Positions 2-16,145 are shown, counted from the stretch's first letter. The stretch is DNA of 16,145 bases from Pseudomonadota bacterium (GCA_043767805.1 JAYUGC010000044.1:1-16145), one strand, 5' to 3'. Notes: generated by a model not told the origin, from the letters alone. Made by a program: numbers and translations.

Positions 2-898
2 CTCACCCCCGAGCAGCAAAGAAAGCTCGAAGGCGATTTCAATGCGGCCATTCAGGCCGCCCAGCAGAATCAGTATGAGAGTGCGGTCGAGTATCTGCGC
101 CGCATCCACTCGGTCTTGCCCTACTATAAGAACTCTCTCGAGCTCCAAGACCAGTACCTGAAGATCGTCAAAGATCGCCAGGTCGTGGACGCGCAAAAGC
201 GCGCGAAAGACGACGAGAAGCAAGACTTGCAGCTCTATCTCGAAGAAGGCTTGGACTACTTGAAGGGTGGCGACTTTGAGCGCGCCGCCGAAGCGTTCAA
301 CTCCGCCATCGTCATCGACCCGGCGAATCCCACAGCCATCCGGGGCCTCAAGGCCGCCGAGTTCAAGGTGAAGAGCCTCGACGAGATCCCGGCTGAGAAA
401 GACGACGAGCAGGAGAAGCGCAAAGTCGTGAGCGAGCTCTTTCAGCGCGCCGTTTCCGCTTTCACCAACAAGAGTTACCAGGAAGCCATCGATACGGCGG
501 AGAAGATCCGTAAAATCGAGCTTCGCGGCGATACCCAGTATCTAAACGAAGCGAAGCAGATCATCGATCGCGCCCGCATGCTCCAAAAAGAAGAGTTCGA
601 GCCTTTCCTCATCCAAGCGAAGGAAAAATACGCCGAAGGGGATTACAACGCGTCTCGCGATCTTTGCGAAGAGATGCTTAAACGCGACGGCTCTTACGAC
701 GAGGCCATCGAGCTACTCACGAAATCGAAGAAACAGCTCTATCGTCTCGCTAAAGAGGCTTACACGTACGGTTACATCCTGGAGAGCATGAACCGTATCG
801 AAGAAGCGAAGCAGTATTGGAACCGGGCGAAGAACTACGTGCGCCCCGGCGATGAGTACTACTCGAAGATTACGAAGAAGCTCGACTCTTACCAGTAA
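2..898 (+). CDS. Tetratricopeptide-repeat (TPR) protein, 5'-truncated by window edge
   Basis: The frame is open from base 2 (LTPEQQRKLEGDFNAAIQAA...) to TAA at 896-898, so the ORF-track start at 116 is internal. Several TPR-like helix pairs are present, e.g. EEGLDYLKGGDFERAAEAFNSAIVIDPAN, AKEKYAEGDYNASRDLCEEML and YGYILESMNRIEEAKQYWNRA. Confidence 0.85.
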   Translation, partial: LTPEQQRKLEGDFNAAIQAAQQNQYESAVEYLRRIHSVLPYYKNSLELQDQYLKIVKDRQVVDAQKRAKDDEKQDLQLYLEEGLDYLKGGDFERAAEAFNSAIVIDPANPTAIRGLKAAEFKVKSLDEIPAEKDDEQEKRKVVSELFQRAVSAFTNKSYQEAIDTAEKIRKIELRGDTQYLNEAKQIIDRARMLQKEEFEPFLIQAKEKYAEGDYNASRDLCEEMLKRDGSYDEAIELLTKSKKQLYRLAKEAYTYGYILESMNRIEEAKQYWNRAKNYVRPGDEYYSKITKKLDSYQ

Positions 899-1973
899 GA
901 CTCAAGGCGCAGAGCCCTGAGCAGCCCGCCAAGAGAAGCCCCATCTCTCCGAGTCCCCAATTCAAAGACAGGAAGGCTCCGTAAGCCAGCGTGCCCGTGA
1001 GGGCCATGAGGCCGTACGCAATGGAGACTGCTCCCGCTCCCGGGAAGGTTTCGCCGAGCCAATCGAGCAGCGAAAGCGCGAGAAACTCGTAGAAGAAAGC
1101 GGCCGCAACGACGAGTAAGAGACCAGCCAGGCGATCTTCCGTGGGAAGAAAGAAGTAACCCATCGCCATGAAGAGTAAGCAAAGCACGACGGCGACGCCG
1201 AAGGGAAGGGCCGCGCCCTTCTTGCTTCTGAGCTCACTCCAAAACAGAGATTTCCCCGCGGTCGCGAGGCCGAAGGCGAGGCTGCCGTAAGCGATGGGCG
1301 CGAGCGTCGTTCCCACGTCGAACGCGGCCAGCGGATCGGCCGTACCCAAGTACTTGGAAAGCATCTGGGTCAAAATCTGCACGCAGAGAGTAAGCCCAAC
1401 GAGACAAAGCGCCGCCCAAGCCGCGCCCCAGCCCAAATGCGATTTTTTCGACGAGTCGGTGCCCCGTTCGGCGGGAGTGAGCTTTCCGGCGGCCACGAGA
1501 TCGAGCGCTCCGGCCACGCCAAAGGCGAGGGCCGCAATGGGTAAGACGGCTTCGAGTCCGACGCTACCGAGGCGTTGAGCGCCGAGAAGCCCCAAGGTGT
1601 AACCCAACGAGTGCGCGAGCTCTACCCAGGGAAGACGGCCTTCCCGCCCGGCCGCGAGGTCGCTTCGAAAGGCGCGAGACACGAAGCTACAGCTGAACTG
1701 CAGGCAAAGCAGAGCGAAGGCGATTCTCTTATCCCCTCGAAGCGCCCAGGTAAGCGAGAGGGTGAACGCCGCTGAGGCGAGCGTCAGGAAGCCACCTACT
1801 CTCGCGATGCGCTTTCTGAAATTCAAGATGAGGCCGAGAGAAAGGGTCGAGCCGACCAGAAAGGCGAGGATGGAGTCACTGCCGGGACCGAAGGCGAACA
1901 TGCCTTTCGTGAGTAGGGCACTCGAGGCCAACGCGCCCAAAAAGTTCGCCGCGACTAGGAGTTTGAGCAACAC
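870..1973 (-). CDS. Polytopic membrane protein, divergent MFS-like transporter (candidate exporter for the mcc-like locus)
   Basis: 367 aa and very hydrophobic, with about 11-12 TM-like segments split into two halves by a polar loop (KLTPAERGTDSSKKSH). The GTG start lies 9 nt after the upstream gene's stop, suggesting co-transcription. The 3' end overlaps the convergent TPR gene by 29 bp. Confidence 0.65.
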   Translation of the reverse strand: MLLKLLVAANFLGALASSALLTKGMFAFGPGSDSILAFLVGSTLSLGLILNFRKRIARVGGFLTLASAAFTLSLTWALRGDKRIAFALLCLQFSCSFVSRAFRSDLAAGREGRLPWVELAHSLGYTLGLLGAQRLGSVGLEAVLPIAALAFGVAGALDLVAAGKLTPAERGTDSSKKSHLGWGAAWAALCLVGLTLCVQILTQMLSKYLGTADPLAAFDVGTTLAPIAYGSLAFGLATAGKSLFWSELRSKKGAALPFGVAVVLCLLFMAMGYFFLPTEDRLAGLLLVVAAAFFYEFLALSLLDWLGETFPGAGAVSIAYGLMALTGTLAYGAFLSLNWGLGEMGLLLAGCSGLCALSLTGKSRASS

Positions 1974-1982
1974 GGCTAAACC

Positions 1983-3512
1983 TTACTCCGGGAGGCAGGC
2001 GGAAAGCACCGCATACTTGAACGCCTCCTCACCTTCCACGATCACCTGATAGGGGTAATCCGTGGGCGGGCTCTTAACCTCAAAGCCCCGCGCGGAAAGA
2101 AAGCGGGCCAGGGACTCCAGCTCGAACTTGATGATGGAATAGAGCAGGATGCGCTCGCCTTTCGGAATCACCTGCTTGCCGTCCCAGGTGGTGAGCCGGT
2201 GTTTCAGCGTGTAATAGAAGCGGTACACCTGGCCGCGGATGCCTTGGGGGCTCGAGTAATCTTGCGCCGGGATGATGCTCTTGAACTCTTCGGCTTCGGC
2301 GTCGTAGAGAAACTCGCGATTCTTCTCGAGCGGAATGGGATTACCTTCGTCGTCCGTGGAAATGAGAAGCTCCAAGTCGTGCAAAAGATGCCGGGGAGTT
2401 TCCAGCGTGAACGGATCGAGCGTGTACTTTTCTTCGATGGGCGCGCCGTCTTCCTTGGGGCCTTTTCTCCGAAGTACCGAAGCGCCTACCAGGAAAGCGA
2501 GCGGTCTCGCGGTGCTGAAAGCTTCCTTCACGGAAACGAAGAAATCCCATTCGTGGTTCTCGTAATTGCCGATGCAATTGCCGAGAAACGTACAGACGGT
2601 GGGCGCGGGCTTGAAGAAGCCTTCTCCCATTTTCATTCTCGCCTGAGGCAGAATGGATTTCAGACGATAGAGATCGCCAATCACGGGGCAATACTTGAGA
2701 CGTCCCGTGCGCAGATCATCGGGAAAGCGTTCCTGAATGAGCTTCGAGTGGCTCATGAGGAGAATGTCGCTCGAATCGATGGCGAGGTACTCGATCTGCA
2801 AATTGCCTTTGCGCTTGAGTAAGCGTCTCAGAATTTCCGATTCGCCGAGACCTTCGCCGGGGGCGAGGGAAACGAGACAGATGCGGCCTTCGGTGGCGGC
2901 TTCGAAAAGCGTTTCCGGAATGCCATACGCGTCCATGGCTTCCGCTTCATAAATCTTTTTGTCGGCAGCGGTCTTGGTGGAAAAGCTGAGCCACCAGGCG
3001 GCCGCACGGTAGGTGCTATAGAGGCAAGCGAAGGGAAGGCCGCCGCCATCACGGACCAATTCGCGGGCAATGGCGCGCGGATCTTGAAGTCCCGCGCTTT
3101 CTTCGGCCACTCCCACGAGTCTTCCACCGACACTTGCTAACGGCTCGGCGGAGCCATCCGTATCCACTAATTCCATCTTCGACTCGCGGCCGACTTTGAG
3201 CGTCTTCAGCCGGAAGCGGACTTCGCTGCGGGGCAGCGTTTTGGAGAGCTCAGAGAGCGCTACCCGGAGCGTCGGAACCGGTAGAATGCCTCCGCCTTTG
3301 GTGGCTTTCTGAGGGGAGCGCACGGCTTTGCGCTTACGGATGATCTCGTTTATATCCCCATAACTAGCTGGATTTCCTCTTAAATCGAGGAGGGCTAGAA
3401 AGACCACTGAGCGGACCGTGGCGTTGTCGAGTTTCAGGGTATCGCGGAAGTCGAGAGCGCGGTCGCCCAGCCACTTCTGATATGCCGCCCCATCTATGGA
3501 CCACGTTTCCAA
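1983..3512 (-). CDS. Putative N-terminal winged-helix DNA-binding domain fused to an EgtD/EasF-like (Methyltransf_33) SAM-dependent methyltransferase domain
   Basis: C-terminal motifs are collinear with the EgtD family: LPFACLY (cf. LPPKYFY), LVSLAPGEG (cf. LIELGSG), YLAIDSS (cf. YVPIDIS), VIGDL, FLGNCIGNY (cf. FLGSTIGNF), FLVG. The N-terminal ~120 aa has a wHTH-like pattern (VFLALLDLRGNPASYGDINEII...TLRVALSELSKTL followed by a beta wing). TTG start preceded by an AAGGAAGG SD. Confidence 0.7.
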   Translation of the reverse strand: METWSIDGAAYQKWLGDRALDFRDTLKLDNATVRSVVFLALLDLRGNPASYGDINEIIRKRKAVRSPQKATKGGGILPVPTLRVALSELSKTLPRSEVRFRLKTLKVGRESKMELVDTDGSAEPLASVGGRLVGVAEESAGLQDPRAIARELVRDGGGLPFACLYSTYRAAAWWLSFSTKTAADKKIYEAEAMDAYGIPETLFEAATEGRICLVSLAPGEGLGESEILRRLLKRKGNLQIEYLAIDSSDILLMSHSKLIQERFPDDLRTGRLKYCPVIGDLYRLKSILPQARMKMGEGFFKPAPTVCTFLGNCIGNYENHEWDFFVSVKEAFSTARPLAFLVGASVLRRKGPKEDGAPIEEKYTLDPFTLETPRHLLHDLELLISTDDEGNPIPLEKNREFLYDAEAEEFKSIIPAQDYSSPQGIRGQVYRFYYTLKHRLTTWDGKQVIPKGERILLYSIIKFELESLARFLSARGFEVKSPPTDYPYQVIVEGEEAFKYAVLSACLPE

Positions 3513-3621
3513 AGTCTCTAGCCTTCCTTAAAACCACGCCGCCGCGGGCGCGTCTTCTTTATACCTGGCTTTGCCCGGGGTTACCAGGCACGAGGATACA
3601 TATATTCCGTATTTATTCATA

Positions 3622-3637
3622 TTGCATATGTATGCAA
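3622..3637. promoter_or_regulatory. Palindromic operator candidate TTGCATA-TG-TATGCAA in the divergent promoter region
   Basis: Perfect 7-bp inverted repeat with a 2-nt spacer inside an AT-rich island between the divergent genes. GCATATGT is present at 3624-3631 and again at 3682-3689. Confidence 0.55.
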
Positions 3638-3734
3638 CGTTTGTTATCTCTAAAGCAACTGATATGAAAGTCGGGCCGAGAGCATATGTCGGTTTTGGAA
3701 TTCTTCAACGGGACGAAACGCAAGGGGACGCAAC

Positions 3735-3758
3735 ATGAACGATCAGAGCTGGAACTAG
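3735..3758 (+). CDS. mccA: Microcin C-like precursor heptapeptide MNDQSWN
   Basis: ATG AAC GAT CAG AGC TGG AAC TAG with SD AAGGGGA at 3722-3728. It is 7 aa with a C-terminal Asn, like E. coli MccA (MRTGNAN), and lies 23 nt upstream of the mccB-like start. Confidence 0.88.
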   Translation: MNDQSWN

Positions 3759-3781
3759 AGAACGCCCAGTCCGGAGAGAGT

Positions 3782-4852
3782 GTGACGCCGTCCCCACGCA
3801 CGGGGCAATGGATCCTTTCTCCCTATGTCCGAGCCGGCCTGGATGGCGGCATCCTTTTCCTCGGGTTCGGCTCCCTGCAAAAGCAGGTGACCGATAGGCG
3901 GCGCCAGGAGCTGCTCCTCTCCACCTCGCACTTCTGGATGATTCCCTCGACCGTGAATGAGGCGCATGACTATCTCGTGAAACGTGCCGGCGCTTCCGAA
4001 GCTGAGGCCAAAGAGACCATCGATTTTCTTTTGCTGAACCGTTACCTCATTCGGCCCGACGCTTTTAAGTCGACCGATCGGTATGGGCGGCATGCTTTGT
4101 TCTACGCGCTTGCCGGTGCGGATCCTCAAATCGTTCAGGGAAAACTCGCGGCGAGCCACGTGGTCGTTCTTGGATGCGGCGGCATAGGCAATCAGATCGC
4201 CTGTGCCCTTGCCGCGGCGGGCGTGGGTAAGCTCACTCTCATCGATGAGGAGCCAGTCGAGATTTCTACGCTTACCCGACAGTTCGTTTTCGCGGAGAGC
4301 GATCTGGGACAGCCGCGCACGGAAACTTTGCGCCGTGAGCTCTCGCGCAGGGCTTCACAGACGGTGGTCGACATCGTGGACACACCGCTTCGAAAAGACG
4401 AGGACTTCGCGAGTATCCCCGACTGCGATTTGATTGTGGTCTCGGCGGATTCGGGTGGGCTCATGCCGCGTTTGAACGCGCACGCCGTCCGCCGCAAGAT
4501 TGCGTACGTGGATGTGGGCTTCGTGCAGGATGTGGCGGTGTGGGGACCGTTTGTGATTCCCGGCCGTACGGGCTGTCACGCTTGTCATTCGCTCGTTGCG
4601 ACGGAGCCCAAGCCCGGTGATTTGGCGTGGAGCCTCATCCGAGAGATCAACGGCCGCTACCAAGCGCCCGCGTTCGGCGCGGTGAACATGGCGTCCGCCT
4701 CTCATGCTTCGCTTGATTGTCTTCGTTACTTGGGAGGCTTCGGCCAAATCCAATCGCTCAACCAGCGCGTCGGCATCTGGACCCACGACCTGCACATCGA
4801 AACCCAGCCATGTCCCCGCAACCCAGCCTGCTCCGTCTGCTCGTTATCTTAA
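3782..4852 (+). CDS. mccB: MccB-like ThiF/E1-family peptide nucleotidyltransferase (microcin C synthetase homolog)
   Basis: Collinear with E. coli MccB along its whole length: WILSPYVR (cf. YILGRYVK), RYGRHALFY..GADPQIVQGKL, VVVLGCGGIGN, LTRQ, VVSAD, GFVQDVAVWGPFVIPGRTGCHAC, PAFGAVN, SLNQRVGIW, RNPACSVC. Both Zn-binding CxxC motifs are kept. The GTG at 3782 with GGAG SD (3773-3776) gives 356 aa, close to MccB size; the ORF-track start at 3686 would overlap mccA. Confidence 0.9.
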   Translation: MTPSPRTGQWILSPYVRAGLDGGILFLGFGSLQKQVTDRRRQELLLSTSHFWMIPSTVNEAHDYLVKRAGASEAEAKETIDFLLLNRYLIRPDAFKSTDRYGRHALFYALAGADPQIVQGKLAASHVVVLGCGGIGNQIACALAAAGVGKLTLIDEEPVEISTLTRQFVFAESDLGQPRTETLRRELSRRASQTVVDIVDTPLRKDEDFASIPDCDLIVVSADSGGLMPRLNAHAVRRKIAYVDVGFVQDVAVWGPFVIPGRTGCHACHSLVATEPKPGDLAWSLIREINGRYQAPAFGAVNMASASHASLDCLRYLGGFGQIQSLNQRVGIWTHDLHIETQPCPRNPACSVCSLS

Positions 4853-4876
4853 AAGTACTAACTATCTTTTAAGAGA

Positions 4877-6325
4877 CTAGTCGAGGGAGATCCAGACCGA
4901 CTTTACTTGCGTGTAGAGCTCGATCGCGTACTTGCCGAGCTCGCGGCCAAAGCCGCTTTGCTTGAAGCCGCCGAAGGGCGAGGCCGCATCGAAGCAGTTA
5001 AAGCAGTTCACCCAAACGGTGCCGGCTTTGACTTGCTTCGCGAGACGGTGCGCTTTGCCGATGTCGCGCGTCCAGATGCCGGCCGAGAGACCGAACATCG
5101 TGTCGTTGGCCTGACGGACGAGATCTTCGTGGCTCTTGAACGAAATCGCAGACACCACGGGTCCGAAAATTTCTTCGCGGGCAATCGTCATGTCGTTGGT
5201 GACGCCTTCGAACACCGTGGGTTTCAAGAAGTAACCCTTCTCACGAGCCTTCATGCCGCCAGTGACGACTTTCGCGCCTTCCGCTTTGCCTTTTTCGATG
5301 TACCCCAAGATCTTATGGAACTGCTCGGAGGACACCTGCGCGCCCATGCGCGTCTTCGGGTCCATCGGATCGCCGACGACGATCTTTTCCGCGTTGGTTT
5401 TCAGTTTCGCGAGGAACTCGTCGTGCGCGCTTTCTTCGATGAAGAGACGCGAGCCGGCGCAGCAAACTTCGCCTTGGTTGAAGAAGATACCTCGCATGGC
5501 GCCCTGTACGGCCGCATCGAGATCGGCATCGGCGAATACGATGTTCGGGGCTTTACCGCCAAGTTCCAAAGACACACGTTTGAGAGAGAGAGACGCGAGA
5601 CGCATCACTTCTTTGCCGACTTCGGTCGAGCCGGTGAAGGCGACCTTGTCGACTTCGGGATGAGTCGCGAGCGCGGCGCCCGCCGTGGGACCAAAACCGG
5701 GAACGACGTTCAGCACCCCGGGAGGAAGGCCGGCTTCCTGAAAGAGCTCAGCCAGGCGCAAAGCAGAGAGAGGCGTTTGTTCAGCCGGCTTCAAGACGAC
5801 CGTGCAACCGGTCGCAATCGCAGGTCCTAGCTTCCACGCCGCCATGAGGAGCGGGAAGTTCCAGGGAATGATTTGGCCGACCACGCCCGCGGGTTCCCGC
5901 AACGTGTAGTTAAAAAAGTTTCCGTTCACGGGGATGGTGTCGCCGTGAATCTTGTCGGCAAGGCCCGCGTAGTACTCGAAGGTCTCGATGGCGAGCGGGA
6001 GATCCGCGTTCATCGTCTCGTAGATGGGCTTACCGTTATTTAAGGTCTCGAGCTCGGCAAACTCCGTTTTGTGTTTTTCGAGAAGAGCGGCAACGCGGTT
6101 CAGGATGCGGCCGCGCTCGCGGGCAGACATTTTCGGCCAGGCGCCCGACTCGAAAGCGCGGCGGGCGGAGCGGGCGGCGAGGTCGATATCGGCTTTGTCG
6201 CCTTCGGCGCACGTGGCCAGGACGGTTTCCGTCGCGGGGTTGAAAACCTCGAAGGTTTTGCCGCTGCGCGCGTCGCACCATTCGCCATTGATGAAAAGCT
6301 TACCATTCTTAACTTCCTGCGCCAT
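4877..6325 (-). CDS. NAD(P)-dependent aldehyde dehydrogenase
   Basis: Motifs [32 protein letters not shown], catalytic Cys in [19 protein letters not shown] and [13 protein letters not shown]. Confidence 0.97.
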
Positions 6326-9085: not shown

Positions 9086-9577
9086 ATGAGCCGCTATTTT
9101 TTGCTTTTTTTCCTTTCGTTTCCAGCCTTCGGGGCGGACGTCTCCACGTTAAAAACCAACGGTGATTTGGACGCCGCCGTGAAATATTGCGTTAAGAATT
9201 TTCCCAAGGGAGCGACTTCCTCGCAGGAGGGTTTCGAGGAGTGCGTTCGCTCGGCACTGGCGACGTATTTCAATGCCGTGGTGAAGCTCACCTGGGCGAC
9301 TGATCCTAAGACGCCGCTCGTAGCGGCGGCCGCCGCGCCCACCAATACGCCGGTGCCCACGCCCGCGATCGATCGCGCGAAGGAAGAAGCGCGCGCCAAG
9401 GAACAATTTAAGATCCTCGTGAAGTCGGTCACGTGTCAGCGTTGTCACGTCGGTCTAAATGCCTCGCAGTATACGCTCTCGCAAATGCACGCGGTGCTGA
9501 CTACGCCGTCGCATCAGGAACATTTGGGCCCCAAGGATCAAGAGCTCATTAGAAAGCTTGGGACGATGGTCCAGTGA
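9086..9577 (+). CDS. Secreted protein with a single heme c-binding motif (putative c-type cytochrome)
   Basis: Signal peptide ending PAFG-A, CQRCH motif, downstream Met/His candidate ligands, and a Pro/Ala-rich linker. Confidence 0.6.
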   Translation: MSRYFLLFFLSFPAFGADVSTLKTNGDLDAAVKYCVKNFPKGATSSQEGFEECVRSALATYFNAVVKLTWATDPKTPLVAAAAAPTNTPVPTPAIDRAKEEARAKEQFKILVKSVTCQRCHVGLNASQYTLSQMHAVLTTPSHQEHLGPKDQELIRKLGTMVQ

Positions 9578-10026
9578 TGATGACTTATTCCGTTCGGCGG
9601 GCGACTCGGGACGACAAGGAGGCGTGGGTCGGTTTGCGCTCGTGCCTTTGGCCGGACGCTCCTGCCGCCGATCACGCGGCGGATGGAGAGACGATTTGGG
9701 AAAAGTATCTTGAAGCGGCGGTCTTTCTCGCGCTCGACCAGACCGGAAAAGCGGTGGGTTTCGCGGAAGTGTTTTTGCGCGGCTTTGCGAGCGGCTGCGA
9801 CACGAGTCCGGTCGTGTTTTTAGAGGGCATCTGGGTGAACCCCGTCGCGCGCGGAAAAGGCGCCGGCCGAAAGCTCGTCGAAGCGTGCGCGGGGTGGGGG
9901 CGCGAAGTCGGCTGCAAAGAGCTCGGCTCCGGCGCGCTCCTCGACAACAAAGCGAGCCACGTCGCTCACAAAGCCTGGGGCTTTGAGGAGACCGAGCGAG
10001 TGATCTACTACCGAATGAAGCTTTAG
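9574..10026 (+). CDS. GNAT acetyltransferase, AAC(6')-Ic/Iy-like family
   Basis: Motifs WVGLRSCLWP, GFAEV.LR...GCDTSPVVFLEGIWV.P.ARGKG.GRKL, GCKELGS.ALLDN.ASH..HKAWGFEETERVIYY. Translationally coupled to the upstream gene (GTGA overlap). Confidence 0.88.
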   Translation: MMMTYSVRRATRDDKEAWVGLRSCLWPDAPAADHAADGETIWEKYLEAAVFLALDQTGKAVGFAEVFLRGFASGCDTSPVVFLEGIWVNPVARGKGAGRKLVEACAGWGREVGCKELGSGALLDNKASHVAHKAWGFEETERVIYYRMKL

Positions 10027-11079
10027 TTACTTCAGCGACTGATTGAACTTCTTCAGGAAGTCCGGACCCGGATCGAGATCTTTCTCCATCAGCGCGTAGA
10101 GCGCCTCGTCCGGCATCTGTCCGATGTCGGAAAGGGTCGGCTGGTCCGCCTTGTAATAGAGCAGACCAGTGAGAAGCTCTTTCGTTTTCTTGCACTCGTC
10201 GAGAGCCTTGAACGCCGACATCTTGCTAGTCGGGTCATAATCCTTCGTGAGCGGCTTGATCGTGAGGGTCGAGCCGTCATGGAGCGTGATGCTCTGGGAC
10301 TCGCCTTCTTTCGTCTCGATCGCGATTTCGTTGAAGAAGGGAACGAAGCCGAGCTCTTGCATCGGGGTTTCATGCTCTTTCACGAAGTCGTAGCTCTTCG
10401 TCGATCCTTCGTGGTTGTTGAAGGTGACGCAGGGGCTGATGATGTCCAGGACCGCGATGCCTTTGTGGGCATGGGCGGCTTTGAGAAGCGCGACGAGTTG
10501 TTTGCGATCGCCCGAGAAGGAGCGGGCCACGAAGGTGGCGCCCAATTCAATCGCGACGGCGGCGCAATCCATGACCGGGTACGGGTTCGGCGCGCCTTTT
10601 TTGGCGAGCGAGCCCTGATCCGCAGTGGCCGAGAACTGACCCTTGGTCAAACCGTAGGTGCCGTTGTTCTCGATGATGTAGACCATGTCGACGTTACGGC
10701 GCACGACGTGGCAGAACTGGCCCATGCCGATGCTCGCCGTATCGCCGTCACCGCTGATGCCGATGGCCGAAAGCGTGATGTTGGCGAGCTTCGCGCCTTG
10801 CGCGACCGACGGCATGCGGCCGTGGACGCTGTTGAATCCGTGCGACCGATCCAGGAAGTAGGTCGGGGTCTTCGAGCTACAGCCGATGCCGGAGAACTTC
10901 ATCACTTCGTACGGCTGAACTCCCAGCTCGTAGTACGCCTGGATGATGGCGTTGGTGATGGAGTCATGTCCGCACCCCTTACAAAGGGTCGAGGGCTTAC
11001 CCGTGTAATCCGTACGGGGGAGGCCCAGGCGGTTGCAATTTGCGGCCGGTGCTGCGGGTGTCGTCGTTGGGGTAGACAT
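10027..11079 (-). CDS. korB: 2-oxoacid:ferredoxin oxidoreductase beta subunit
   Basis: LCKGCGH, SGIGCSSK, HGR, TPP-binding GDGD...NN motif, YGLTKGQFS and SPCVTFN. Confidence 0.93.
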   Translation of the reverse strand: MSTPTTTPAAPAANCNRLGLPRTDYTGKPSTLCKGCGHDSITNAIIQAYYELGVQPYEVMKFSGIGCSSKTPTYFLDRSHGFNSVHGRMPSVAQGAKLANITLSAIGISGDGDTASIGMGQFCHVVRRNVDMVYIIENNGTYGLTKGQFSATADQGSLAKKGAPNPYPVMDCAAVAIELGATFVARSFSGDRKQLVALLKAAHAHKGIAVLDIISPCVTFNNHEGSTKSYDFVKEHETPMQELGFVPFFNEIAIETKEGESQSITLHDGSTLTIKPLTKDYDPTSKMSAFKALDECKKTKELLTGLLYYKADQPTLSDIGQMPDEALYALMEKDLDPGPDFLKKFNQSLK

Positions 11080-11081
11080 GA

Positions 11082-12863
11082 TTAAGCTCCCAATTCTTTC
11101 TTAAGTTCCCGTTCCACAAGATCCGAGGACAGGGGGAATCCGCCGTAGTAAGTGAGCGAGCGCATCTTGGAGTTGTAGCCGGGAAGGTCCCACTCGAGCA
11201 GGGCGCGCATCTGTTTGTCGCGGTTTTGTTCGACCACGATAACTTTATCACAGCCCTTGATGAACTCTTCGACTTCGGACGAGAACGGATAAGCGCGCAG
11301 GCGCATGTACTTCACGTTCTTGTTCTGGATGCGATCCATGGCCTCGATGACCGCGGAGTCCGACGTGCCGTAGGCGATGATGCCGATCTTGGCGCCGGGA
11401 CTGCCGTGCATGACGGGCTTCGGAACGTGCTTCTTCGCCGTGTGCCACTTGCGGAGCAAGCGGTCGACGTTACGGGTGTACGCTTCCGGGCGCTCGGTGT
11501 AGCGCGCGAACTCATCGTGACCCGAGCCGCGAGTGAAGTAGCCGGCGCGGATGTCCGGGTTGCCGGGAAGGGTGCGGTACGGGATGCCGTCGCCGTCGAC
11601 GTCATTGTATCGTCCCCAGCCGTTCAACTTGTCGTCTTTGGCTTGGAGGACTTTACCGCGGTCGTATTGCGGCTTTTTGTACTCGAAATCGTCGTCAATC
11701 CAGTTGTTCATGCCGAGATCGAGATCGCTCATCACGAAGACGGGCGTCTGGAAGCGCTCGGACAGGTTGAAGGCATCGTTGGCCATCTCGAAGCACTCTT
11801 TGGGAGTGGAGGGGATGACGAGAATGTGTTTCGTGTCGCCATGGCCCGAGCCCGCGCACATGCGATAGTCGCCTTGTTGGGTGCGCGTGGGGAGACCCGT
11901 CGAGGGGCCGACGCGCTGGATGTTCCAGATGACGGCCGGCACTTCGGCGTAATAAGCGAGGCTCAAGAACTCCTGCATGAGCGAGATTCCGGGGCCGGAG
12001 GTGGAGGTCATCGCCCGGGCTCCCGCCCAGCCGGCGCCGATCACCATGCCGATGGCCGCGAGCTCGTCTTCCGCCTGAACGATGGCGTAGTTGAGCTTTC
12101 CGTCTTTACGGACGCGCGTTTTCTTGAGGTAGCCTTCCATCGATTCCGCGAGAGAGCTCGACGGAGTGATGGGGTACCAGGCGACGACCGTGCAACCGGC
12201 GTAAACGGAGCCGAGCGCGCCGGCGGCATTGCCTTCGATGAAAATTTTATTGTCGTTGAGGTCGGCTTTCGCGAACGTGAAACGATCCTTCTTTTCGAAG
12301 TTCGCTTTCGCGTAGTCGATTCCGATTTGGAGCGCTTCCATGTTGGCGTCGATGGCGGACTGCTTCGACTTGAACATGTCGCGGATGACGCCTTTGAGAA
12401 CTTCTTCGTCCAGGTCGTAGAGGTGCTTCATCACTCCGACGTAGAAGAGATTCTTAAGTAGTGTTCGGAGCTTGGCGTTGGTAATTTTCTTCGACAGTTC
12501 CTCTACGGGAAGCGCGTACATGATCATGCCAGGCTTGATCTGCTCCGGCGTGAACTTGATGATGTCCGAGTTGTAGAGAATCGTGGAGCCGGCGCGCATT
12601 TCGCCGATGTCCTGGGCTCCGGTGTCCTTGTTCATGAGAACGGCGATGTCGTCGTGCTCGCGCAAGTTTTGGTATCCCTTCGGGCTTACCCGAATTTGGA
12701 ACCAGGTCGGAAGGCCCTGGATATTCGACGGAAACATGTTCTTGCCGCAGACGCCGACGCCCATCCGGAACAGTGTTTTGTAGAGGATGTTGTTGGAAGA
12801 TTGGCTGCCGGTACCGTTGACGGTGGCAACGCGGAAACTGAAATCGTTAATTAGTTTGTCCAT
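11082..12863 (-). CDS. korA: 2-oxoacid:ferredoxin oxidoreductase alpha subunit (fused gamma domain)
   Basis: NGTGSQS, YPITPSS, QAEDELAAIG, TSGPGISLM and QRVGPSTGLPTRTQQGD motifs. Confidence 0.93.
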   Translation of the reverse strand: MDKLINDFSFRVATVNGTGSQSSNNILYKTLFRMGVGVCGKNMFPSNIQGLPTWFQIRVSPKGYQNLREHDDIAVLMNKDTGAQDIGEMRAGSTILYNSDIIKFTPEQIKPGMIMYALPVEELSKKITNAKLRTLLKNLFYVGVMKHLYDLDEEVLKGVIRDMFKSKQSAIDANMEALQIGIDYAKANFEKKDRFTFAKADLNDNKIFIEGNAAGALGSVYAGCTVVAWYPITPSSSLAESMEGYLKKTRVRKDGKLNYAIVQAEDELAAIGMVIGAGWAGARAMTSTSGPGISLMQEFLSLAYYAEVPAVIWNIQRVGPSTGLPTRTQQGDYRMCAGSGHGDTKHILVIPSTPKECFEMANDAFNLSERFQTPVFVMSDLDLGMNNWIDDDFEYKKPQYDRGKVLQAKDDKLNGWGRYNDVDGDGIPYRTLPGNPDIRAGYFTRGSGHDEFARYTERPEAYTRNVDRLLRKWHTAKKHVPKPVMHGSPGAKIGIIAYGTSDSAVIEAMDRIQNKNVKYMRLRAYPFSSEVEEFIKGCDKVIVVEQNRDKQMRALLEWDLPGYNSKMRSLTYYGGFPLSSDLVERELKKELGA

Positions 12864-13840: not shown

Positions 13841-13917
13841 GGGGTGGTAGTTCAGTTGGTTAGAACGCCTGCCTGTCACGTAGGAGGTCGCGGGTTCGAG
13901 TCCCGTCCGCCCCGCCA
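13841..13917 (+). tRNA. tRNA-Asp (GTC)
   Basis: 77-nt cloverleaf: acceptor stem GGGGTGG/CCGCCCC, D arm AGTTCAGTTGGTTAGAAC, anticodon arm CCTGC-CTGTCAC-GTAGG, T arm GCGGGTTCGAGTCCCGT, discriminator G and encoded CCA. Confidence 0.98.
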
Positions 13918-13925
13918 TTTACTTT

Positions 13926-15248
13926 CTAAGATCGCGTTTTCACTAATCTTAAAAAATTTGGATCAGAGCTTGGGGGACATTGGGGGACAGGCGCACTGCG
14001 TTCCTGTCCAAAATTCCCCGCAACGCTGTCCCCCGGGGGGACAGCATCCAACGCATTTTTCGTGAGCACCCCATTGAGGGCGTCCGCGATTTTGTGCTTC
14101 GATGCGTTTGTCTGAGTGACGTATCTCAGCGTTACATTCGGTGAAGAATGATCGAGGTGTTTCGAGACTGCGTAAAAATCGCCCGTCGCCTCGTTGGCCA
14201 GAGTTGCCGAGGTTTTCCTCAGCATATGGGTTCCACGAACATTCTTGATGCCCAATCTCTCCAGCGCCCGGTTGTAGGCTTTCGCCACCGTTTGCCGATT
14301 CATGGGCTTTCCGTTGTTGTGGAAAACAAAGGGCACATTGGGGTTTCGGATCTTTTCGAGTCTCTTCAACTCCTCTACCAAGAGTTGCGGCATCACTAGC
14401 ACCCGAACTTTCCCATTCTTTGGTCTCTCCTTCACCCGGGGTTCCCAGGTGATTTGATCCCAATCAATGGTGCGTTCGATACGAATGATCCGATTCTTCA
14501 GATCCAGAGCCTCCCAGGTCATCCCCGCCAATTCTCCAATTCTTAACCCCAAACAAAACTGTGCTAGGGCCATCGAAGAGAAGATCGGGCTTTTTGACTT
14601 CTTGAGATCCTGCAAGAACAGCGACAACTCTTCTTGGCTCAAGCTCTGAACGGGAGCTTGTGCCTTTTTAGCGATGTCCGCTGCCCTATAGTGTTCATCA
14701 AGAATCGGGATGAGGTAACTTGGGTCGATCCGCTTCCGGTAGAAATTGAGGATCACTTTGAGAAGGTTCAGTTCCTTTTCAAAGGTGTGCCTCGGTCCCC
14801 CTTTCGGGTAACTCTTCACCCAAAACGAGATCAACGCATCAATGAGTGAAGTGTCGATCTCCTCAACTTTAGTACGCGTCAAGAAATCCAGATTTGGAAG
14901 TCGCTTTTCGTATGTCTGTTGAGTGCTTCGTTCGAGTTGCAGAAAGTGGAATGGTTTCCACCGTTCGACAAGCTCTCCGAAAGTTAGCCGTCCATCACTG
15001 CGATGGATCATGTTCCGGGGAGCGTTGTTACCTATTGGGGCCTTTTCAATTTCACCTTGGCGAAATCGAAGCGCATCTTCGAGACTATCGAAAACGGCTT
15101 GCTCCTTTCGGGAGATTCCGTTTTCGACAATTCGCCTCATGGCTCTGTACTTACCCGTTTCTCTCCATTTTTTTGTTTGGCCATCAAACTCCAGTCTTTT
15201 GGAAATTCCTGGATAGTTTCTGACCGGCTGTTCTTTACGTGTGATCAT
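13926..15248 (-). CDS. int: Tyrosine recombinase / phage-type integrase
   Basis: Complete catalytic set: GLRIGE (R), PKNG (K), HMLRK (HxxR), HLDHSS (H), TLRY (Y). N-terminal arm-binding-like and core-binding regions are present. Confidence 0.95.
   Translation of the reverse strand: MITRKEQPVRNYPGISKRLEFDGQTKKWRETGKYRAMRRIVENGISRKEQAVFDSLEDALRFRQGEIEKAPIGNNAPRNMIHRSDGRLTFGELVERWKPFHFLQLERSTQQTYEKRLPNLDFLTRTKVEEIDTSLIDALISFWVKSYPKGGPRHTFEKELNLLKVILNFYRKRIDPSYLIPILDEHYRAADIAKKAQAPVQSLSQEELSLFLQDLKKSKSPIFSSMALAQFCLGLRIGELAGMTWEALDLKNRIIRIERTIDWDQITWEPRVKERPKNGKVRVLVMPQLLVEELKRLEKIRNPNVPFVFHNNGKPMNRQTVAKAYNRALERLGIKNVRGTHMLRKTSATLANEATGDFYAVSKHLDHSSPNVTLRYVTQTNASKHKIADALNGVLTKNALDAVPPGDSVAGNFGQERSAPVPQCPPSSDPNFLRLVKTRS
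13970..14045. repeat. Four GGGGGACA boxes (candidate integrase arm-type sites)
   Basis: Tandem TTGGGGGACA at 13970-13979 and 13980-13989, plus the inverted pair GCTGTCCCCC-G-GGGGGACAGC at 14025-14045. Confidence 0.65.
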
Positions 15249-15496
15249 CTAGTGCCTCCTTTTTGGAGCCACTCAGCGATCTTCACTGGTGAGAAACGAA
15301 CCGATCGCCCTACTTTGGAGTAGGGGATCTTGTTGCCCGACATTAGCTTGTAGACGTGGCGAACGGAGACGGAAAGTTCCCGCGCCACATCGTCCACCGA
15401 CCATACCAACTTTTCAAAGACCGGAGCCCGAGGATTCAAGGGCTTATCGATAGAAGAGATACTACATATAGGGATGACATTTGGCAATTTATTCAT
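15245..15496 (-). CDS. xis: Excisionase-family helix-turn-helix protein
   Basis: WSVDDVARELSVSVRHVYKLMSGNKIPYSKVGRSVRFSPVKIAEWL fits the HTH_17/MerR-like Xis pattern. It overlaps the int start by 4 nt. Confidence 0.88.
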   Translation of the reverse strand: MNKLPNVIPICSISSIDKPLNPRAPVFEKLVWSVDDVARELSVSVRHVYKLMSGNKIPYSKVGRSVRFSPVKIAEWLQKGGTR

Positions 15497-15596: not shown

Positions 15597-16145
15597 ATGT
15601 CGAATAAACCGATCTTCTCGATAACGTCCAACATGCTCCTTCGGTGCACCGAGATCACCCAATTGCTAGGTCGTTACGAAGGGCTGATGAGTCCCCGCCC
15701 CCAGCCTTTGCTGCGTCGGCAAAATCGAATCCGCACCATCCGGGACAGTCTGGCGATTGAGGGAAACCGGCTTACGCTCGACCAAGTGAGCGCCATTTTC
15801 GATGGAAAAAAAGTCTTAGGCCCGTTGAGAGAGATCCTGGAAGTCACGAACGCGATCAAAGTCTACGAGAAAGCTCCCTTCTTTGATCCTTCGTCGTCCA
15901 AGGCCCTGCGAAAGGCGCACGGGATTTTGATGAAGGGGCTCGTCGAAGACGCAGGGCAATGGCGGGCAACCGATGTCGGAATTTTGAAGGGCTCGAAAGT
16001 GTCCCACCTTGCTCCCCCCGCAAGACTCGTGGCGGGACTCATGGAAGATCTTTTTCTGTATCTGAAGAACGAGAAGGCTATTCACGCGCTCATCAAGTCC
16101 AGCATCTTTCACTACGAGCTTGAGTTCATCCATCCGTTTTCGGAC
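15597..16145 (+). CDS. Fic-family protein (AMPylase), 3'-truncated by window edge; absent from the ORF track
   Basis: Manual translation is open for 183 codons: MSNKPIFSITSNMLLRCTEITQLLGRYEG...RIRTIRDSLAIEGNRLTLDQV...AGQWR...HYELEFIHPFSD. It ends at the start of the Fic motif HPFxDGNGR and includes the inhibitory motif SLAIEGN. Confidence 0.93.
   Translation, partial: MSNKPIFSITSNMLLRCTEITQLLGRYEGLMSPRPQPLLRRQNRIRTIRDSLAIEGNRLTLDQVSAIFDGKKVLGPLREILEVTNAIKVYEKAPFFDPSSSKALRKAHGILMKGLVEDAGQWRATDVGILKGSKVSHLAPPARLVAGLMEDLFLYLKNEKAIHALIKSSIFHYELEFIHPFSD

Follow-up and report, generated by a model that had tools for sequence, protein, structure and literature searches.

The contig JAYUGC010000044.1 of Pseudomonadota bacterium (GCA_043767805.1; genome of 4.5 Mb) was analysed in its entire length of 16,145 bp, referred to below as the window. 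Its positions 870–4852 contain four genes that probably represent two separate units placed back to back: a minimal mccAB pair of the microcin C (McC) type and an autonomous methyltransferase-transporter module. The order along the window is a TPR protein, the membrane protein MEM367, the methyltransferase MT509, a 173-nt spacer, the mccA/mccB open reading frame (ORF), and an aldehyde dehydrogenase (ALDH), so that the four genes are bounded on both sides by convergent flank genes. The preliminary description of this region had presented the four genes as one McC-like system; all four, with both flanks, were present as claimed, and their coordinates needed small corrections. The closest related loci belong to uncultured Pseudobdellovibrionaceae. 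Judged from its gene sequences, the locus is a McC-like member in Bdellovibrionota with a variant gene organisation, and it extends the McC-type peptide-nucleotide genes to this phylum. No entry for Bdellovibrio is present in Table S1 of PMC6495379, and a full-text search combining microcin C with Bdellovibrio gave a single, unrelated paper.

Precursor gene and MccB synthetase

The mccA gene (3735–3758, plus strand) consists of seven codons and a TAG stop, is translated to MNDQSWN, and has the ribosome-binding site AAGGGGA 6 nt upstream. In the sister-species locus L003, 23 of the 24 nucleotides of mccA are the same, the sole change being in the stop codon (TAG to TAA), and the heptapeptide is identical although MccB is only 74% identical there. 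The DNA past the mccA stop has diverged between the two species and is weakly alignable. The near-invariance of mccA and its ribosome-binding site next to diverged flanks indicates purifying selection.

The search for mini-genes was extended to 16 metagenome loci in which the match to MccB was long, and seven (L037, L038, and L040–L044) contained a heptapeptide ORF of the M-x5-N type with a Shine-Dalgarno (SD)-like site just upstream of the MccB homologue, encoding MDDEASN, MDTTGNN, MNTDGAN (twice), MNTTGGN, MISSACN, and the E. coli peptide MRTGNAN. Longer Asn-ended ORFs were found in others of the 16, and one had none. This matches the major MccB clade, in which a mini-gene precursor, typically of seven codons, is located upstream of the synthetase gene (PMC6495379, section 6). 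The heptapeptides of Nocardiopsis, MNDDGSN and MNDDGNN (Table S1 of PMC6495379), resemble MNDQSWN of the window. The co-occurrence with an Asn-terminal micro-ORF, put forward as a check in the preliminary description, was observed for MccB homologues in these seven loci; the methyltransferase pair is not linked to mccB outside the genus. Two distant MccB-like genes, in L049 and L051 (28–29% identity), are preceded by longer ORFs (2476–2589 and 2836–2961, respectively) composed of repeated Asn-ended units, for example ...NRTMIMNRTMIMNRTMIMN, which may be multi-core precursors.

The mccB ORF (3686–4852, plus strand) encodes 388 amino acids (aa) from ATG 3686; an alternative start, GTG 3782, with GGAGAG at 3773–3778 ahead of it, would give 356 aa. 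The protein has a peptide clamp at its N-terminus and an adenylation domain of the ThiF type, which contains two CxxC pairs. The Pfam ThiF match covers aa 147–383 (E = 3.7e-34), and E. coli MccB (PDB 3h5n) was aligned end to end (E = 1.4e-63, query residues 11–355 against chain residues 6–350), the next PDB families, namely MoeB, ThiF, E1 enzymes, and PaaA, being matched at E = 2e-16 or worse. Residue numbering in the MccB alignment starts at 3779, one codon ahead of GTG 3782, which leaves the results unaffected. Among 25 homologues, the loop G132-C-G-G-I-G137 (GCGGIGN), C266, and C269 are invariant, C351 and C354 are nearly so, and several Arg, Asp, and Gln positions are also invariant or nearly so. 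The zinc cysteines line up with those of E. coli MccB. The full-length synthetase with its zinc cysteines, the precursor kept in the sister species, and the mini-genes in related loci thus identify mccA and mccB as a genuine microcin C-type pair, as had been proposed.

The MccB-like enzyme of the window might make, in place of an exported antibiotic, a peptide that is cyclised or carries a thioester, as other ThiF-like enzymes do, or a molecule for signalling inside the cell. ThiF-like enzymes acting on ribosomally synthesised and post-translationally modified peptides are varied and include PaaA, GrcB, EnfB, and the Trp-linked IndF (PMC12150305); in MNDQSWN a Trp adjoins the terminal Asn, and a canonical exporter is missing from the four genes. 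However, those enzymes are little like MccB in sequence and use leader-containing precursors (PMC12150305), PaaA was matched only at E = 1.1e-10 over 92 residues compared with the full-length match to MccB, and it is the major MccB clade that is marked by a seven-residue M...N precursor (PMC6495379). A product of this other kind is therefore very unlikely, and no result obtained here favoured the signalling circuit suggested in the preliminary description.

MccB is 74–77% identical among the three species of its clade, and its identity is 46–48% to Nocardiopsis proteins and 48% to a protein from a metagenome-assembled genome of Planctomycetota. Eight of 401 sampled genomes of the phylum gave an MccB match at E <= 1e-20; just one of the eight is in the same family, and it belongs to the same genus. 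The placement of MccB among its relatives, called for in the preliminary description, was obtained from a tree of 41 rows. The window and two sister sequences form a clade with 100/100 support next to the pair of Planctomycetota P0023 and metagenome locus L037, a neighbourhood whose support of 83/77 is not strong. A 99/98 branch parts this clade from another Bdellovibrionota ThiF-like group adjoining MFS_1 genes. The E. coli-type L044 was left out of this tree, to which long-branch and composition warnings apply. The occurrence in a single genus of the family and the nearest relative from Planctomycetota or metagenomes suggest that mccAB was acquired horizontally.

The other Bdellovibrionota group, present in loci L025, L027, L028, and L029 (genomes G131, G249, G372, and G027), has a distinct ThiF-like gene of about 30% identity and constitutes a tree clade of its own. 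An MFS_1 gene adjoins it in all four loci, and an unassigned gene of 365–377 aa is next in line in L025, L027, and L028.

Pfam and NCBIfam scans of the four genes of the window revealed no families of the MccC, MccD, MccE, MccF, MccH, or MccS types, in agreement with the preliminary description, nor an MFS_1 or any other transporter family that could represent an MccC-type exporter beside mccAB. With no MccC, MccE, MccF, or MccH homologue adjacent, and with a gene content beside mccB that differs between the species (L003 alone has two extra ORFs), mccAB could be imagined as what is left of a cluster that was transferred, was then deprived of its exporter and immunity genes, and is now inactive, yielding no product. 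The intact ORFs, the conserved catalytic and zinc residues, the persistence of the synthetase in three species at 74–77% identity, and the purifying selection indicated by the near-invariant mccA and its ribosome-binding site within diverged flanks make such decay very unlikely.

The two extra ORFs of L003 (2347–3874; 192 and 313 aa) lie between ALDH and the 3' end of mccB. They were considered as lost accessory genes and rejected, having no Pfam family and no match in the genome of the window.

mccA within the 5' extension of mccB

The mccB ORF starts upstream of mccA and runs through it in another frame, mccA being in the +1 frame relative to mccB. The 49 nt from ATG 3686 up to mccA (leader, 3686–3734, plus strand) are near-identical in L003 and run into mccA, and the offset is the same in both loci. 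Conservation between the window and L003 begins exactly at ATG 3686, crosses mccA, and ends at its stop codon; the DNA directly upstream of ATG 3686 has diverged. A third species of the same MccB clade, P0020, was available for protein comparison. In all three species MccB starts with MSVLEFFN.TKRKG..HERSELEL, followed by in-frame linkers of 17, 16, and 18 residues. No start-like codon is present in L003 from codon 22 to codon 60 of the mccB frame, and the P0020 linker is devoid of M, V, and L. With no canonical in-frame start after mccA in these two species, their MccB must start upstream of mccA. The window itself weighs against generalising this, since it has the usable GTG 3782 with its SD sequence GGAGAG after mccA, and the nesting is therefore compulsory in the sister species only.

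In the other loci examined, the mini-gene precedes the first start codon in the MccB ORF as called. A nested precursor was found neither in these related loci nor in word searches of the text of PMC4010828 and PMC12250964, whose cluster maps (Fig. 1 and Fig. 4, respectively) may contain comparable architectures.

E. coli obtains its excess of peptide by means of an intergenic terminator, placed after mccA and ahead of mccB, that is under ribosome control (PMC4231749). In the window, a strong ribosome-binding site of mccA inside a weakly initiated mccB frame could result in a large excess of peptide over enzyme, and if the nested mccA sets this ratio, it would be a new way of doing so. A terminator of the E. 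coli kind was looked for and rejected: the scan gave no promoter-like site and one terminator-like site, at 3841–3854 inside mccB. A single site is no more than chance would give (0.6 +/- 0.9 expected), and conservation of its hairpin does not extend to L003.

Methyltransferase MT509 and membrane protein MEM367

The unit on the minus strand comprises MT509 (1983–3512; 509 aa), a predicted S-adenosylmethionine-dependent methyltransferase of the EgtD fold, and MEM367 (870–1973; 367 aa), which starts 9 nt after the MT509 stop and forms an operon with it. MT509 matches Methyltransf_33 (PF10017) at 33 bits, above the cut-off of 23, over aa 212–344 and profile positions 64–177 of 304, and it is the sole match to PF10017 genome-wide. 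It fails the NCBIfam EgtD equivalog TIGR03438 (22.7 bits against a cut-off of 290.9). Comparison with PDB chains by sequence gave no match, either with the single protein or with the family profile.

The predicted structure of MT509 (pLDDT 80.6) contains an N-terminal helical domain with a terminal beta-hairpin, a disordered linker, a Rossmann-type domain, and a C-terminal beta-rich lid. In a Foldseek search with this model, EgtD occupied ranks 1–14 (best E 1.5e-9). A VIA structure search of 48,161 chains with residues 139–509 placed EgtD 4uy5 at the top (Z 18.3, rmsd 3.5, 285 residues aligned), with the next match at Z 16.3. The partial PF10017 match and the best structural match to EgtD (4uy5) agree with the assignment to EgtD-type methyltransferases made in the preliminary description. 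MT509 shares a common fold with EgtD, the ergothioneine histidine N-alpha-methyltransferase (4uy5, 4pio), yet its identity to EgtD is only 13–16%, about 120 residues at its N-terminus form an additional domain, and its partner is a transporter rather than ergothioneine genes.

In the model, the N-terminus contains helices at 33–44, 51–61, and 79–95 and strands at 100–107 and 110–117 (pLDDT about 70–90). The winged-helix-like character of aa 1–117 follows from this predicted topology and is unproven. The 130 N-terminal residues of nine family members had no Pfam match, winged-helix families included, at E <= 0.1; a search of the ESM Atlas with residues 1–125 gave best scores of 0.80–0.84, which is the chance range. 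The only chains spanning residues 18–509 were O-methyltransferases with N-terminal dimerisation domains, at rmsd 17–20.

No Pfam or NCBIfam family was found at E <= 0.01 for MEM367, and none for five other members of its family. Its AlphaFold model (pLDDT 89.7, pTM 0.89) has 12 helices, six on either side of the loop 164–181. Foldseek returned 193 matches at E <= 0.001, and among the matches listed all were MFS proteins, including VMAT1/2, with TM-scores of 0.57–0.71. The earlier label "MFS-like" consequently holds at the level of fold only, without a sequence family. Profiles of the MEM367 family and of the MFS_1 neighbours of MccB homologues showed no similarity (hhalign probability 0.5%).

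The MT509 family is small: 127, 88, and 66 representatives were found at E <= 1e-3, 1e-10, and 1e-30, respectively, among 1.84 billion sequences searched, and a separate search gave 18 clusters. No PADLOC defence-system model matched MT509 or MEM367, and MccB meets the E1-E2 models via its ThiF core only. A literature search by key terms gave no paper linking an EgtD-like methyltransferase to an MFS transporter. The methyltransferase-transporter operon thus appears as a rare, unnamed, conserved module.

Distribution of the two units and the divergent region

The MT509 homologues analysed with their surroundings came from 20 genome loci of Bdellovibrionota, Legionellaceae, Coxiellaceae, and Acidobacteriota. 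A tblastn match to MEM367 was present in 19 of these loci and located directly downstream on the same strand in 16; in three Acidobacteriota loci the MEM367 homologue was elsewhere in the locus, and one of the 20 contigs ends too early. A MccB match was found in a single locus, that of the sister species L003, and in 16 of the other 19 the DNA on the divergent side extends for 3.5 kb or more. In the sample of 401 genomes of the phylum, MT509 occurred in seven, all from the family to which the window belongs (f1). Five of these genomes (G091, G125, G143, G179, and G203) are outside the eight MccB-positive ones, a point weakened for G179 and G203 in that their lack of MccB is deduced solely from absence among the eight listed positives. 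None of five module-bearing genomes of other phyla gave a full-length match to MccB, the best match (E = 1.4e-15, residues 107–278) being confined to the ThiF core. Conversely, neither MT509 nor MEM367 was found in the 80 metagenome loci fetched with MccB, a figure that also carries less weight than its size, since many of these loci are short or contain generic ThiF matches and about 11 are full-length and informative. The accessory genes that Pfam recognised beside MccB homologues were of the MFS_1 family in three loci (L038, L043, and L045), while L041 had one for a HIT protein and L042 one for an ABC ATPase.

The pair is thus found without MccB in other Bdellovibrionota, Legionellales, and Acidobacteriota, and is not a dedicated mcc component. 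The claim that the four genes constitute one dedicated system was not supported: the lack of linkage to mccB in other genomes, which the preliminary description had named as evidence against it, was observed everywhere outside one genus.

The region between the two units is AT-rich, with a GC content of 0.36 over 3590–3680 compared with 0.567 for the window. Its core, an AT-rich element at 3596–3640 in the divergent promoter region, is conserved in L003 and contains AAATACGGAATATATGTAT, as read on the strand of MT509. It includes an 8-nt inverted repeat, 3596–3603 / 3626–3633 (ATACATAT/ATATGTAT). Of the AT-rich palindromic spacer described earlier, the AT-richness was confirmed; the inverted repeat is not above chance, an arm at least as long being reached in 41 of 300 shuffles, and the palindrome was rejected as a special operator. 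Five loci have words of the form AAATACG[GT]A...ATG.AT ahead of the MT509 homologue, the background frequency being 0.13 per kb. Two of these loci, L006 and L008, have no mccAB, and in them the word is located 57–100 nt upstream of the homologue. This motif is a suggestive candidate for the operator of the MT509-MEM367 module, the pattern and its enrichment having been defined post hoc. Since it recurs upstream of MT509 in loci without mccAB, the element seems to belong to the promoter of the module itself, beside which mccAB is now placed.

For the four genes to act as one McC-type system, MEM367 would have to replace MccC as exporter, MT509 would have to tailor the peptide-nucleotide or protect the producer, and a shared divergent promoter region would control both operons. 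The MFS fold of MEM367 would suit this role, MccC being an MFS pump; accessory genes of varied kinds are known to have been recruited by mcc clusters (PMC12250964), and the four genes include nothing else recognisable as an exporter or immunity gene. Nevertheless, profile comparison showed no resemblance of MEM367 to the MFS proteins beside MccB homologues, MccB is missing from 19 of the 20 MT509 loci and from ten further module genomes, all 80 MccB metagenome loci are without the module, and the AT-rich motif in loci without mccAB points to a promoter of the module itself. A single system is favoured by the fact that both species of the genus keep the units adjacent and the region between them conserved, but adjacency within one genus is insufficient to define a new four-gene system, and we consider such a system unlikely. 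It survives as local co-option only, a possible though doubtful use of the pair, within this genus, in export or in immunity.

Several further points weigh against the preferred reading of two separate units. The 173-nt divergent region and the adjacency of both units are kept in both species that could be examined in the genus, and a functional link would yield the same pattern. A producer needs export and usually self-immunity. The window contains no other export or immunity candidate, and MEM367 has a transporter fold. Moreover, mcc immunity genes also stand alone in genomes without mcc (PMC4010828, PMC12250964), so that unlinked occurrence is compatible with an immunity role here.

In four Bdellovibrionota loci without mccAB, a HATPase_c gene of the histidine-kinase type is located divergently upstream of the MT509 homologue (L004, 445–1203; L005, 4933–6888; L007, 4790–6508; L008, 7100–7843), in the position held by mccAB in the window. 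Three Acidobacteriota loci, in which the membrane protein is differently placed, encode a large SIR2_2 and TPR protein matching PADLOC SIR2 models (L013, 4697–9497; L020, 6820–11529; L019, 2–4693). A second MT509 paralogue of 378–380 aa, without the N-terminal domain, is present in L013 and L020.

Proposed functions and comparison with known systems

With homology, conserved residues, and precursor conservation as the basis, the chemistry, nucleotide, and target of mccAB can be proposed by analogy with E. coli. The ribosome would make formyl-MNDQSWN from mccA. The clamp of MccB would bind this peptide, and its C-terminal Asn would be activated with a nucleoside triphosphate and converted, with a succinimide as intermediate, into a peptidyl-nucleotide that contains an N-P bond, as in E. 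coli MccB. The product would be the Trojan-horse precursor of an aspartyl-tRNA synthetase inhibitor. The pair was likely gained horizontally, and its distribution is what such an acquisition would look like. MT509-MEM367 would be an older, autonomous two-gene operon. Judging from the folds, MT509 most likely methylates a small amine or an amino-acid-like compound, and MEM367, an atypical transporter of the MFS fold, would move the substrate or product across the membrane.

Like the E. coli cluster mccABCDE with mccF (MccA MRTGNAN; MccB 3h5n, 3h5a), the window has an Asn-ended heptapeptide, a strong ribosome-binding site, and a full-length MccB downstream. In contrast to it, MccC, MccD, MccE, and MccF are not recognisable, the intergenic mccA-mccB terminator is missing, mccA is inside the 5' extension of mccB, and the pair is chromosomal and located in Bdellovibrionota. 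The minimal mccABC operons of H. pylori, S. thermophilus, and L. johnsonii and the predicted heptapeptide clusters of Nocardiopsis have the same core of heptapeptide and MccB, without aminopropyl tailoring genes. The third gene of this minimal set is an MccC-type MFS exporter (PMC4010828), whereas in the window the sole nearby gene with a transporter fold, MEM367, is part of another conserved operon. A mccAB pair without the exporter of the supposed minimal set raises the question of how the producer exports and survives the compound.

One conceivable answer, which we regard as improbable, is that MT509-MEM367 confers resistance or immunity to antibiotics of the aminoacyl-nucleotide (McC) type, a role that has gone unrecognised. 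Alpha-amino groups are the site of action of EgtD-type enzymes. By analogy, MT509 with its EgtD fold would methylate the processed warhead at its free alpha-amine, and MEM367 with its MFS fold would act as an efflux pump for the compound. Aminoacyl-sulfamoyladenosines that are N-methylated are not effective inhibitors of their synthetases (PMC3817062), MccE protects the producer by acetylating the alpha-amine of processed McC (PMC12250964), and stand-alone homologues of mccE and mccF exist (PMC4010828). The C-terminal GNAT domain of MccE, responsible for self-immunity, provides an analogy only for MT509, from which it differs in fold and chemistry, and an action of MT509 on aminoacyl-nucleotides found no support here. 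If such a role were true, the module would be a mostly stand-alone resistance determinant, like homologues of MccE, MccF, and MccH, and a minimal mccAB would have been captured beside it in one genus with a shared divergent control region. Captured in this position, mccAB would need no MccC or classical immunity gene.

Other genes of the window

The TPR protein (2–898, plus strand) and ALDH (4877–6325, minus strand) were assigned by family matches, of the Pfam type for the former. They are convergent with MEM367 and mccB, respectively, and remain outside both units; among the 20 MT509 loci compared, the synteny of these flanks is kept in the sister species alone.

An Rfam scan of the window gave a tRNA as the sole match. 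No RNA runs covering 3300–4900 were listed, the six listed runs being DNA from sediment metagenomes, of which three may represent the source sample. A GNAT acetyltransferase is encoded at 9574–10026, 4.7 kb from mccB, with unrelated genes intervening and nothing marking it as MccE-like; two genes for subunits of a 2-oxoacid:ferredoxin oxidoreductase adjoin it at 10027–12863. Near the end of the contig, tRNA-Asp (13841–13917, plus strand) is directly followed by a tyrosine-recombinase integrase gene (13926–15248, minus strand), an HTH_17 excisionase-like gene (15245–15496, minus strand), and a Fic/DOC gene (15597–16145, plus strand) truncated by the contig end. The segment 13841–16145 looks like an integrative element inserted at tRNA-Asp.

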